Source: Escherichia coli (GTDB lineage: Bacteria > Pseudomonadota > Gammaproteobacteria > Enterobacterales > Enterobacteriaceae). From it: a stretch of DNA of 3,047 nucleotides. The position numbers and the translations under genes were made by a program. Below, one piece after another: positions 1 through 3,047 of the stretch. The stretch lies in assembly GCF_003334335.1 (NCBI RefSeq), contig NZ_QOWQ01000085.1, one strand, 5' to 3'. The notes under the pieces are model-generated. The model saw only the letters and a program-made list of their open reading frames with translations. It ran no database searches and was not told where the DNA came from. Each line of letters begins with the position of its first letter. Position 1 is the stretch's first letter.

Positions 1-53
1 TCCATAAATTAACCTTCATTTGATGCTGGATTGAACATATCAAAATCAGGCAA

Positions 54-443
54 TTACACAAATCTATGTACAGGCTCACGGGCAATTTTACGACGGCGTT
101 CACGCCATAACCCCTCTTCTATCATCCACTTTCTGAGAGTTTCAACGGATAAAGATAAACCGTGTATCTCGCGCAATTTTTCGCACGCAAACGTAGGTCC
201 AAAATCAGCGTAACGGCCTTTGAGGAGTGAAATTACTGTTGCTCTGAATTCAGTAGAAAAGGAATTATTAGGACGCTTTCCACGTCGGTGGGAAACCAGA
301 CCAGAAGGCCCTTCATTTCTATACCGTTGCACCAGACGTTTAACCTGCCGAATAGAAATGCCAATGCGTGCCGCAGCTTGTTCCTGAATAATCTGAAGTC
401 GGTGGAGTTCCTTATGACTCATCGTAACAGTCTCTTTGATCAT
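54..443 (-). CDS. N-terminal HTH DNA-binding portion of a transposase/integrase-family protein (129 aa); likely a truncated IS or transposon remnant
   Basis: ORF-track protein MIKETVTMSHKELHRLQ...IGISIRQVKRLVQRYRNEGPSGLVSHRRGKRPNN has a helix-turn-helix signature typical of N-termini of rve/DDE-type transposases. The ORF ends at TAA (54-56) about where a catalytic domain would begin, and the 53 nt beyond it do not continue the protein in any frame. Start ATG 443..441 is preceded by a GGGGGA Shine-Dalgarno-like motif. Confidence 0.55.
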   Translation of the reverse strand: MIKETVTMSHKELHRLQIIQEQAAARIGISIRQVKRLVQRYRNEGPSGLVSHRRGKRPNNSFSTEFRATVISLLKGRYADFGPTFACEKLREIHGLSLSVETLRKWMIEEGLWRERRRKIAREPVHRFV

Positions 444-471: not shown

Positions 472-531
472 ACATTTTAGAATGGTTCAAAGGGGACATT
501 ACAGCTTGGTGTTAACAATAGCCTGCTTCTC

Positions 532-547
532 CGTGCCTTTCGGCACG
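532..547 (-). other. GC-rich hairpin with GAAA tetraloop on the minus-strand transcript
   Basis: Plus CGTGCC-TTTC-GGCACG; minus RNA CGUGCC-GAAA-GGCACG (6-bp stem, GNRA-type loop). No U-tract follows, so it is not a classic intrinsic terminator. Confidence 0.3.
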
Positions 548-592
548 TAAGAGGCTAACCTACATGTGTCTAGCATGAAATTGGCCTCAGAT

Positions 593-627
593 TAATGTTA
601 AGCGTCTTGCAGGACGCGTAATGTTAA
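593..627. repeat. 9-bp direct repeat TAATGTTAA (593-601 and 619-627) flanking a short hairpin (602-618)
   Basis: Read directly: TAATGTTAA, then GCGTCT-TGCAG-GGACGC (stem includes one G-U pair), then TAATGTTAA. Function unknown. Confidence 0.45.
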
Positions 628-640
628 CTGGGGCTTTTCT

Positions 641-676
641 CTATCTGCCGTTGGTGTCCATGCCCGAGGCAGATAG
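641..676. repeat. Perfect 9-bp inverted repeat (CTATCTGCC / GGCAGATAG) with an 18-nt spacer
   Basis: 641-649 CTATCTGCC pairs exactly with 668-676 GGCAGATAG. It lies in ORF-poor DNA downstream of the small membrane protein gene (minus-strand sense). Confidence 0.45.
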
Positions 677-777
677 CCTCAAGCACCCGCAGTCATTCTA
701 CTTAACTAAGATTTCCCCGCAAACCGTTTTTGTCCAGCACAGTAAATATCCAACTAAACCAATGGAGTTCGCTGTAT

Positions 778-957: not shown

Positions 958-1211
958 TATTCCTCCTACAATCAATGTGCAATTACATTTAAACACACCT
1001 CAATTTGGCCGGACATATAAATATCTAAACCAGAAAAAATCACTTACATAGCGTTACAAACTCTTTAGTCTAAAGGTTCATCGTAAAACATTCCCCATAC
1101 TTATCAGTCCGTTCCGCGCCAGGTAGCTCATTGCCTTATCTGGCAACCTGTAATCAGGTTTCCGCTTTTTCAGTTGGCTGGTCGTTTAACCGACATAGTT
1201 AATCCATTAAT

Positions 1212-1499
1212 CTAGTTGCCGGATGTTGGTGGATTTTCGCGTTTTAGTTGTTCATAAAAGTGCACAGCTTTAACCAGTTCTTCTGATGTAACTGGGACTG
1301 GTGAGGCAGTGAATAAGGCCTGAATTTGATAGTTCGGCCTGTCGTTACAATCCTCTTTTTTCGGTACATATTTCCAGTCACCAGACCACTACTTCCCCTG
1401 AAAGTCCGTAACGCCTTTTTTCACGTAGCGATATCGCCATGCCACTGGTTTTGCTTGCCCCGCCGTTTCATGCCCTTCCTGATAATTAATCTCGCTCAT
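1212..1499 (-). pseudogene. Small phage-like ORF (95 codons) interrupted by one in-frame TAG at 1391..1389
   Basis: Minus frame: MSEINYQEGHETAGQAKPVAWRYRYVKKGVTDFQGK-TAG-WSGDWKYVPKKEDCNDRPNYQIQALFTASPVPVTSEELVKAVHFYEQLKRENPPTSGN-TAG. Its ATG (1499..1497) overlaps the upstream gene's TGA as ATGA. Coding-like sequence continues in the same frame after the amber codon. Confidence 0.4.
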
Positions 1500-1687
1500 T
1501 CATCGCCCCACTCATCACAATATGCTTCGACCGGAGTTTTTCCCGCTTCATAGTCATCACGCTAGGATTCGACATCAGCAGCACTTCCACCGCGTAACTC
1601 ACCATAGTCCATTAATAGTTCATCCCGCTCTTCAAAACTGATGTTATATTTAGCTGAACAAAAATCAGCCACTTTGTTCTTCCTCAT
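1496..1687 (-). pseudogene. Small acidic ORF (63 codons) interrupted by one in-frame TAG at 1564..1562
   Basis: Minus frame: MRKNKVADFCSAKYNISFEERDELLMDYGELRGGSAADVES-TAG-RDDYEAGKTPVEAYCDEWGDE-TGA. The final TGA (1498..1496) overlaps the next gene's ATG, which argues that the post-amber segment is the true C-terminus. Confidence 0.4.
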
Positions 1688-1736
1688 CGTCTTTTATTTC
1701 GTGGTATGAGTAATTGCAGTAGTTAAAGAAAATTTC

Positions 1737-1847
1737 TTATGCTCCGTCATGAATTTCCTCAGGTGTTGCGTCATCGTCCACTTCGAATACATCCTCAAAA
1801 TCTCCACCAGCTATTCCCGTTTCAATAATAATTTTGAACTTTCGCAT
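1737..1847 (-). CDS. Very acidic small protein, 36 aa
   Basis: ATG 1847..1845; MRKFKIIIETGIAGGDFEDVFEVDDDATPEEIHDGA with 11 D/E against 3 K/R. An AGGAGG lies upstream, separated from the ATG by a stable hairpin. Confidence 0.35.
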   Translation of the reverse strand: MRKFKIIIETGIAGGDFEDVFEVDDDATPEEIHDGA

Positions 1848-1854
1848 TTCACTA

Positions 1855-1876
1855 CCGCCCTTTCGGGCGGCCTCCT
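1855..1876 (-). promoter_or_regulatory. Shine-Dalgarno AGGAGG followed by a GAAA-tetraloop hairpin, then 7 nt, then the ATG of the 36-aa ORF
   Basis: Minus RNA: AGGAGG (plus 1871-1876), then CCGCCC-GAAA-GGGCGG (plus 1855-1870, 6-bp all-GC stem), then UAGUGAA, then AUG (1847). The hairpin would bring the ribosome-binding site to a functional distance from the start codon when folded. Confidence 0.35.
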
Positions 1877-1932
1877 GATGTTCTGAGGGTGCAGAAATCC
1901 ATCCGGTTAAGGATTAAATTTTATTTACAGAA

Positions 1933-1950
1933 CTGAATTTAATTATTCAG
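1933..1950. promoter_or_regulatory. 18-bp near-palindrome CTGAAT-TTAATT-ATTCAG in an AT-rich intergenic region; operator-like
   Basis: The outer 6-bp arms are exact reverse complements (1933-1938 and 1945-1950). The site lies in the ~260-bp AT-rich gap between the methyltransferase stop and the small-ORF cluster, where a promoter for that cluster is expected. Confidence 0.25.
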
Positions 1951-1981
1951 ATATACGTATCTGTAGCCTTACGAATCTACT

Positions 1982-2031
1982 CACTGGATGCCTCTTTCAT
2001 AAAAATAATCCAGTGGGTTTTATCGTTTTTT
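1982..2031 (+). terminator. Plus-strand-oriented terminator-like hairpin followed by a T-tract
   Basis: CACTGGAT (1982-1989) pairs with ATCCAGTG (2008-2015), an 8-bp stem with an 18-nt loop, followed by GGTTTTATCGTTTTTT. On the minus strand no U-tract follows, so the orientation is plus. The large loop lowers confidence. Confidence 0.3.
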
Positions 2032-2109
2032 CCCTGTTCGTTGACAGATAACAGGTTTTCTGTCTGTCAGTGCCAGAATCTGGCTTACCGGTATTTGCGT
2101 TTCATTCCA

Positions 2110-2466
2110 TTAAAAAATCAGAACGCCGTGCGGCCTCAACACCCGAAAGGCTTCTTTAAATCTCTGTCGCGAATCATCACGCCAGGCATCTTTATTCAGC
2201 CGTCCATATTTCTTTCCCATCCAGGCGTTATCACCAACACTCTCAAGATGCGGAGGGTCTAATACAACCATCGAAAAAGATGCGTCTGCAAATGATAATG
2301 CACGAAAATCTGCGATAATGTCAGGGCTGATAATCAAGCGTCTCCCATTGCGTAATGTGTATCCTTCTTTTCTGATATCGCTGAATATCGCCCGTTCGTC
2401 AGACTTATCGAACCAGAACATGCGGCTGCCACAGCACATATCAAGAATGGTTGCCGGTGCACTCAC
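2110..2466 (-). CDS. SAM-dependent methyltransferase core (118 aa), probably a phage-type DNA methyltransferase, apparently lacking a normal N-terminus
   Basis: Protein contains a motif-I-like LDMCCGS near its start, a DPPH motif resembling motif IV (D/N-PP-Y/F/H) of amino-methyltransferases, and VLRPHGVL resembling the common LKPGG motif. The only in-frame start is a GTG that overlaps the upstream ORF's stop (GTGA); a stop lies 7 codons further upstream in this frame. Confidence 0.55.
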   Translation of the reverse strand: MSAPATILDMCCGSRMFWFDKSDERAIFSDIRKEGYTLRNGRRLIISPDIIADFRALSFADASFSMVVLDPPHLESVGDNAWMGKKYGRLNKDAWRDDSRQRFKEAFRVLRPHGVLIF

Positions 2467-2729
2467 TGCGCCACGTCCTGAAAATTACCCTGATAGAAAG
2501 CCAGTATGCGCTGCATAACTTCGCTCTTCCGGCACTCGCGACAGATTATGTTTAGGCGACTGTCGTAGCGACGTATTTCTCCGTCAGGTGATGACCAGAT
2601 AAGGTCCGGATCAACCACAGCAGGTTTCTTCACCTTTGCCCTCGAGAGTTTTTTGCGGGCGTTTTGCCAGTCCTTACGCGCCTGTTCAGAGGGGAATAAC
2701 CCGTATCCGGAGCTTAAGTTGCACGCCAT
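2463..2729 (-). CDS. Hypothetical 88-aa protein; possibly the N-terminal part of the adjacent methyltransferase separated by a frameshift
   Basis: ORF MACNLSS...DLIWSSPDGEIRRYDSRLNIICRECRKSEVMQRILAFYQGNFQDVAQ ends with a TGA that overlaps the GTG of the methyltransferase frame. There is no clear Shine-Dalgarno before ATG 2729. Codon usage is otherwise coding-like. Confidence 0.4.
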   Translation of the reverse strand: MACNLSSGYGLFPSEQARKDWQNARKKLSRAKVKKPAVVDPDLIWSSPDGEIRRYDSRLNIICRECRKSEVMQRILAFYQGNFQDVAQ

Positions 2730-2787
2730 CGGGTGGGTTAAGCATAAATGTATTCCTGGTGCTAAATGGCCCGAAATTCAGGCAGAG

Positions 2788-3047
2788 ATGCGCATCTGGA
2801 AAAAACGTCGCGAAGGTGAACGCAAGGAAACCGGAAAATACACGTCTGTTGTTGATCTCGCCCGCGCCAGAGCCAATCAACAGTACACTGAAAATTCAAC
2901 AGGAAAAATCAGCCCGGTCATTGCTGCCATTCATCGCGAATACAAGCAGACATGGAAAACACTGGATGACGAACTGGCCTACGCTCTCTGGCCTGGTGAT
3001 GTGGATGCCGGAAACATTGACGGCAGCATCCATCGCTGGGCAAAAAA
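2788..3047 (+). CDS. 5' part of a phage-like hypothetical protein; continues beyond the window end
   Basis: Frame 1 is open from 2569 to the window end. First ATG at 2788 gives MRIWKKRREGERKETGKYTSVVDLARARANQQYTENSTGKISPVIAAIHREYKQTWKTLDDELAYALWPGDVDAGNIDGSIHRWAK with E. coli-like codons (CGC, CTG, GCC, GAA). The exact start is uncertain, since coding-like sequence in this frame begins near 2740. Confidence 0.5.
   Translation, partial: MRIWKKRREGERKETGKYTSVVDLARARANQQYTENSTGKISPVIAAIHREYKQTWKTLDDELAYALWPGDVDAGNIDGSIHRWAK

Follow-up and report, generated by a model that had tools for sequence, protein, structure and literature searches.

Remnants of two adjacent phage genes, lygF and a small methyltransferase gene, in a decaying Qin-type prophage of Escherichia coli

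The interval 2110-2729 of the window (the whole stretch of 3,047 nucleotides of E. coli DNA analysed here) holds what is left of two independent phage genes, formerly translationally coupled and both now remnants in a decaying prophage. We give a probability of about 0.9 to the reading that the interval is the wreck of two adjacent, independent genes that once belonged to the early-right operon (replication/nin side) of a prophage of the lambdoid Qin/Rac type. Gene 1 would be lygF, encoding a 140-aa DUF977 protein at the position of lambda's ren, just after the replication genes. Gene 2 would encode a stand-alone class I SAM-dependent methyltransferase of ~162 aa, with the motif LDMCCGS and a motif IV of the amino-methyltransferase type, DPPH, and would normally be translated from a GTG that overlaps the upstream stop codon (GTGA) and stands behind AGGAGG. 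A first-pass annotation of the same DNA had correctly located two overlapping open reading frames on the minus strand and had proposed a single ancestral gene of about 200 aa broken by a frameshift; the sequence feature is real, and the proposed split-gene mechanism is wrong. The features on which this rests are as follows.

2729-2463, minus strand: 88-aa open reading frame (ORF88) with an ATG start, from the list of open reading frames
2463-2712, minus strand: 3′ remnant of lygF/DUF977, residues ~58-140 of 140, annotated by PGAP as "DUF977 family protein, incomplete, missing N-terminus"
2713-2729, minus strand: chance ATG (2729-2727) and first codons (MACNL...) of ORF88, on the antisense strand of the exonuclease gene
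2703-2712, no strand: junction of a ~4.6-kb deletion, an imperfect 10-bp microhomology CTCCGG(A/C)TAC common to lygF and the exonuclease gene
2703-3047, plus strand: remnant of a recE-like exonuclease (exodeoxyribonuclease VIII) gene, without its 5′ end and running off the window
2474-2479, minus strand: degraded Shine-Dalgarno sequence AGGACG, where intact E. coli alleles have AGGAGG at equal distance from the GTG
2463-2466, minus strand: 4-nt start/stop overlap GTGA, the GTG (2466-2464) lying over the TGA (2465-2463) of LygF
2110-2466, minus strand: truncated methyltransferase ORF of 118 codons with a GTG start and a premature TAA at its end (RefSeq WP_001310834.1)

Both ORFs are truncated, the 88-aa one lacking the first 57 residues of its family and the 118-aa one the last ~44 of its own, and the matches of both to their families are far above chance. 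A profile search places ORF88 in PHROG 142 (E = 3.2e-20), and the 118-aa ORF matches PHROG 954, "DNA methyltransferase" (E = 6.7e-58, positions 52-165 of the 229-position profile) and PADLOC PDLC03288 (MTase_II, E = 4.5e-45, positions 3-122 of 169 only). The three motifs that had been picked out by eye, LDMCCGS (residues 8-14), DPPH (residues 70-73) and LRPHG (residues 110-114), all fall on invariant or near-invariant family columns, and the ORF thus carries both the motif I and the motif IV (DPPH) of the small phage methyltransferase family. The core indeed has no ATG start, the first in-frame ATG being Met10 inside LDMCCGS. Upstream the frame is closed by TAA 2487-2485, with six sense codons before the GTG; the open frames therefore overlap to 2484, as had been noted, but the overlap of the two genes amounts to just 4 nt. 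GTG is the usual start of the family in E. coli homologues, where it stands seven bases after AGGAGG, and the Cronobacter alleles begin with ATG.

A split of one ~200-aa methyltransferase gene by a +1/-1 frameshift, with ORF88 as the N-terminal part and the 118-aa ORF as the catalytic core, would explain the overlapping frames and the GTG in place of an ATG, and it could draw on the N-terminal extensions of 50-80 aa found in some distant family members (about 50%-60% identity) and on the ~50 positions of PHROG 954 that precede the match. The intact relatives nevertheless contradict it. In a search of 5.8 billion proteins, 1630 relatives of the window methyltransferase were recovered, and the intact homologues, 157-167 aa in length, align with it from its residue 1 at 100% query coverage; they begin at the same residue, so the idea that the core reaches N-terminally past the GTG falls away, and the extensions of distant members are heterogeneous and mutually dissimilar. 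Among 267 family proteins, the N-terminally extended ones included, not one subject aligns across both frames (best LygF/ORF88 match E = 0.67). ORF88 itself belongs to a separate, well-defined family, DUF977/PHROG 142, with intact members of 140 aa. At L012 and L013, two loci of E. coli (87% identity), DUF977 (140 aa) and the methyltransferase (162 aa) are encoded side by side by separate genes with a 4-nt overlap, and the same arrangement recurs in an O121:H19 strain; in these intact relatives the upstream DUF977/LygF protein has 138-140 aa and the methyltransferase 157-162 aa. The methyltransferase also sits behind quite different genes: in P22-like prophages an 82%-identical, 161-aa enzyme lies in the early-left region, preceded by DUF2737 or by unrelated ORFs (98-205 aa), and in Cronobacter it follows an unrelated 177-aa ORF. 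Because the two are consistently separate genes with independent starts, an outcome that the first-pass annotation had itself counted against a split, that reading is refuted and retains next to no probability.

The overlap is a recurrent feature of the gene. It is found as GTGA or ATGA in loci L012, L013, L004-L009, L014-L017 and L020, and every P22-like and Cronobacter case has a 4-nt overlap with the upstream gene. The other suggestion made for this interval, a small coupled partner followed by a GTG-initiated methyltransferase, accordingly holds as far as the GTG, the AGGAGG and the 4-nt overlap are concerned, all three being conserved in E. coli, but DUF977 is not an obligate neighbour. 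This also bears on the possibility that DUF977/LygF, as a DNA-binding specificity partner, and the methyltransferase, as the catalytic subunit, belong to one obligate system of two proteins, with the overlap serving stoichiometric co-translation. The pair is adjacent with the 4-nt overlap in Rac/Qin-type prophages, the N-terminal part of LygF weakly resembles the DNA-binding family phrog_2391 (E = 8.6e-6), and the methyltransferase itself contains no target-recognition domain. Against this, methyltransferases 75%-82% identical occur without DUF977 in P22-like prophages and Cronobacter, the family is also present in phages of Gram-positive hosts, and in many phages that have lygF the methyltransferase segment finds no match at the DNA level; we regard an obligate system as highly improbable and retain two independent genes.

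The 88-aa ORF is a chimera, an artefact of the deletion junction. Its residues 6-88 match residues 58-140 of LygF (140 aa) from phage PhiR42_1 with 100% identity. This phage (from ECOR13) is 99.9% identical to the window over 1900-2712 and has the undeleted arrangement O, LygF (intact, 140 aa), methyltransferase. Homology to lygF ends at window position 2712, and homology to the recE-like exonuclease, on the opposite strand, begins at 2703. In a three-way comparison the same microhomology was found at both PhiR42_1 breakpoints (4678-4687 and 9298-9307), from which we conclude that the window carries a deletion of ~4.6 kb. Lost with it are the 5′ part of the exonuclease gene, ydfB/C/D-type genes, cI/dicA, cro/dicC, a cII/ydaT-like gene, O and the first 57 codons of lygF. 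This deletion between short microhomologies took the start of lygF, and an antisense ATG that is in frame by chance produced the 88-aa ORF. Intact LygF covers positions 1-134 of 134 of Pfam DUF977 (PF06163, E = 9.5e-29), and the window copy spans residues 58-140 only. ORF88 shares with the DUF977/LygF/PHROG 142 family ("Ren-like exclusion protein") the position directly after the replication genes, but differs in that the first 57 residues are absent, including the part that resembles DNA-binding proteins, and in that another gene, on its antisense strand, supplies the start codon. The name "Ren-like" reflects the position or the annotation of the family; NCBIfam has no match for LygF, and our literature search on DUF977/LygF brought up nothing beyond genome announcements and unrelated papers on lysozyme g.

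Judged from gene order, the window is a remnant of a Qin-type defective lambdoid prophage, located between flxA/ydfW and xis/int/rspB. Strains with this Qin variant include VG48B2 and ML35. In VG48B2 the order is relBE, ydfV, flxA, ydfW, then a partial ISNCY transposase, two pseudogenes and the 118-aa methyltransferase, followed by DUF977, the 3′-5′ exonuclease gene, xis, int and rspB, with both DUF977 and the exonuclease labelled "incomplete, missing N-terminus" by PGAP. Segments 99.9%-100% identical to the window are carried on the chromosome by 369 of 5426 complete E. coli genomes, and in most genomes the match starts no earlier than position 78 of the window. The window resembles the defective prophages Qin and Rac in its flanks (relBE, hokD, flxA and ydfW on one side; exonuclease, xis, int and rspB on the other) and in its decay by IS insertion, internal deletion and point mutation. 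It differs from them in that the whole immunity and replication block (dicA, dicC, the ydaT-like gene and O) is gone through the 4.6-kb deletion while the lygF-methyltransferase remnants are kept. The whole stretch around the methyltransferase is a pseudogene graveyard, with the following further features.

1-443, minus strand: N-terminal part of an ISNCY-family transposase (ORF from 443 to 54, 129 aa, then a stop), with the IS end at about 444-517; annotated by PGAP as incomplete, missing the C-terminus
1078-1499, minus strand: hypothetical gene between the IS and the methyltransferase, annotated "frameshifted; internal stop"
1665-1847, minus strand: DUF7167 gene between the IS and the methyltransferase, annotated with an internal stop

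Two further observations concern the segment next to the IS. A match to the sok antitoxin RNA of the hok/sok type I toxin-antitoxin systems (Rfam RF01794, 104 bits against a gathering score of 59, E = 7e-24) lies on the minus strand at 517-688 and extends to ~708; window 518-708 is 98% identical to a region of phage HannyBb that contains the first ~59 nt of a gene for a "MokW-like host killing protein". This homology breaks off at ~517, at the start of the IS, so it seems that the IS removed the hok/mok toxin frame and left the sok/leader part in place. An unannotated minus-strand ORF of 72 aa at 778-996 (~59 aa from an internal ATG) is very hydrophobic (MKNALQFLFVAFWLFASCMPIIF...FLGVFMAVMCIEYWR) and resembles a small membrane protein; the RefSeq record has no feature there.

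The methyltransferase gene is indeed broken, but the break is at its 3′ end, as a nonsense codon and a 1-nt insertion, and not at the 5′ end. The lesions and what follows them are listed here.

2110-2112, minus strand: premature stop TAA replacing the invariant Lys119 (AAA in intact alleles), beyond which the frame goes on as WNETQIPVSQILALTD...
1977-2109, minus strand: what is left of the 3′ part (codons 120-162) of the ancestral methyltransferase gene, now silent and broken by the 1-nt insertion
2026-2031, minus strand: frameshift, an A6 run with one extra A (GGGAAAAAACG against intact GGCAAGAACG), from the DNA alignment to L012
1977-1979, minus strand: ancestral stop TAG of the ~162-codon methyltransferase gene

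Past the TAA at 2112-2110 the first frame reads WNETQIPVSQILALTDRKPVICQRTGK, and the +1 frame then reads NDKTHWIIFMKEASSE up to a stop; with the ancestral TAG at 1979-1977, the ancestral gene spanned 2466 to 1977. Lys119 is invariant across 50 diverse family members. Besides the stop at this position, the window protein has six amino-acid deviations at columns that are at least 97% conserved in 92 intact homologues, which themselves average 0.57 such deviations with a maximum of 5. The damage in this lineage comprises the change of Lys119 to a stop, the downstream 1-nt insertion, a weakened ribosome-binding site and six replacements at conserved positions. Measured against intact alleles, the window allele has a dN/dS of 0.13-0.19, compared with 0.08-0.14 among intact alleles, which is only a weak signal of relaxed selection; since the ratio is only modestly raised, inactivation is recent relative to the divergence of the alleles, most of which predates it.

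The relative age of the lesions can be read from sister alleles. A database variant of the window allele (P0012: ...GVLIFEWNETQ...QRTGKKR, then a stop) has the A-run frameshift but GAA (Glu) at codon 119, so the frameshift probably preceded the nonsense mutation, or else the stop arose via GAA. Both PhiR42_1 and strain AL.H8 have the two point lesions without the 4.6-kb deletion. On these comparisons the likely order is frameshift, nonsense mutation, deletion. Programmed frameshifting or slippage at the A6 run (A AAA AAC) was considered and rejected, since intact alleles have no A-run at that place (GGC AAG AAC), and since a +1 shift would be needed and the stop codon lies 26 codons upstream.

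Selection might have kept the 118-aa protein as a working "minimal" methyltransferase, or as a SAM-binding protein, that is short by nature. This deserves consideration because RefSeq annotates it as an intact CDS, because motif I and DPPH are kept together with the acidic residue that follows β2, and because about 380 complete genomes carry the allele nearly unchanged (at least 99% identity), while some 480 E. coli alleles reach at least 95% identity; phage HannyBb, too, has kept a truncated fragment. That conservation, however, probably reflects recent common descent. The protein ends within the predicted β5 and lacks β6, β7, the invariant K119-W120 and P138, so that it has neither the full-length coverage nor the C-terminal strands of the family, and we infer that the product is inactive; going by the predicted structure of a homologue, it would be unable to fold. 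There is a second lesion downstream, as expected of a dead gene, in addition to the six substitutions and the weakened Shine-Dalgarno sequence. The promoter region of the operon is deleted, for which reason the locus is probably poorly expressed, and a promoter/terminator scan of 1850-3047 gave promoter matches at chance level only and none upstream of ORF88. PGAP, moreover, is inconsistent: the window's allele has a normal protein accession, while the AL.H8 allele, 98.8% identical to it, is called a pseudogene ("frameshifted; internal stop"). A functional minimal protein is thus very unlikely, and a dead gene is the reading that we keep. In phage HannyBb (L003, 2934-3140 and 3164-3586) an intact 140-aa LygF-type gene lies beside a 68-aa "DNA methyltransferase" fragment, which suggests that the methyltransferase was lost independently more than once and is dispensable.

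The structural consequences of the truncation were evaluated on an AlphaFold2 model of an intact 162-aa allele (P0010, m09382862451e; 50-sequence alignment), which has a pLDDT of 93.3 and a pTM of 0.88. The model has a class I Rossmann-type methyltransferase core, with motif I at β1 and β4 ending in DPPH, a long helix (residues 95-109), β5 (residues 110-121) and a β6-β7 hairpin (residues 140-156). Truncation after Phe118 would cut the predicted β5 and remove β6 and β7. Residues 1-80 are modelled as β-strands only, including an extra hairpin at 34-46, with no helices at the usual places of αA-αC; such a helix-free N-terminal half, as predicted, is unusual for a class I fold. Structural neighbours are generic class I enzymes, with Bud23 among the top Foldseek hits, and no DNA methyltransferase stands out in the fold search. 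The model also indicates that the intact enzyme has no target-recognition domain of its own.

Sequence profiles are similarly unspecific. Pfam gave no significant family for the methyltransferase (best Methyltransf_11, E = 0.19), nor did NCBIfam (TIGR01934 at 15 bits against a cutoff of 158), and a search of PDB sequences with the family profile returned nothing significant (best 1ve3, E = 0.021). For N6_N4_Mtase (PF01555), none of 50 members scored at E ≤ 0.001 and 11 of 50 at E ≤ 0.1, the best being 1.6e-3. YfdM of the phage Dam family, encoded by the K-12 CPS-53 gene yfdM and reportedly studied as a putative Dam-type methylase, was rejected as a relative (BLASTP E = 9.3; YfdM is PHROG 111, not 954). 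Our literature search found no experimental study of the intact ~160-aa family and nothing on the DPPH motif together with methyltransferase, and queries for WP_001310834/yfdM gave only yfdM and unrelated papers. A close known system is the RefSeq ~160-aa class I SAM-dependent methyltransferase, which corresponds to PHROG 954, PDLC03288 (MTase_II) and PDLC03730 (oMTase). The window copy agrees with this family in start position, LDMCCGS and DPPH and in its orphan context in early regions of temperate phages; it differs in covering about two thirds of the profile, in lacking Lys119-Trp120 and the C-terminal strands, and in its second frameshift.

We agree with the first-pass annotation that the motifs do not fix the substrate as DNA, RNA or protein. 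The motif (D/N/S)PP(Y/F/W/H) is typical of enzymes that methylate exocyclic or amide nitrogens, and amino-methyltransferases with this motif IV include the N6-adenine and N4-cytosine DNA methyltransferases as well as the m2G RNA methyltransferases Trm11, RsmC and RsmD. The absence of an endonuclease partner, also pointed out earlier, holds in every context that we examined: no nuclease of the R-M type lies beside the methyltransferase, in the window or in five different homologous contexts. The intact family would most likely methylate exocyclic amino groups in the nucleic acid of phage or host early in infection, without a cognate nuclease. Going by the PHROG and PADLOC labels, DNA is the likeliest substrate, although an unproven one, as no experimental test was found and the family name "DNA methyltransferase" of PHROG 954 is an annotation.

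The locus represents ordinary prophage decay, by microhomology deletion, nonsense mutation, homopolymer frameshift and IS insertion, and it is already annotated, though inconsistently. Its value lies in annotation: WP_001310834.1, listed with 118 aa as a "class I SAM-dependent methyltransferase", represents a truncated protein, and the overlapping GTGA start/stop is normal operon architecture rather than the sign of a frameshift. The dead copy in the window is unable to reveal the substrate of the intact family, an uncharacterised minimal methyltransferase of about 160 aa with DPPH and no target-recognition domain. The wider point is that this family is very widespread in temperate phages, those of Proteobacteria, Firmicutes, Actinobacteria, Bacteroidetes and Akkermansia (the non-enterobacterial examples listed being mostly 45%-64% identical). 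PHROG 954 occurs in 254 phage records, with hosts that include Streptococcus, Vibrio, Acinetobacter, Listeria and Gordonia as well as Enterococcus, Staphylococcus, Porphyromonas, Bacteroides and Akkermansia. It is rather unlikely that the family lacks sequence specificity or that its substrate is RNA or protein instead of DNA; if either were the case, it would be a widespread early-phase enzyme of host takeover or anti-defence and not a classical orphan DNA methylase.
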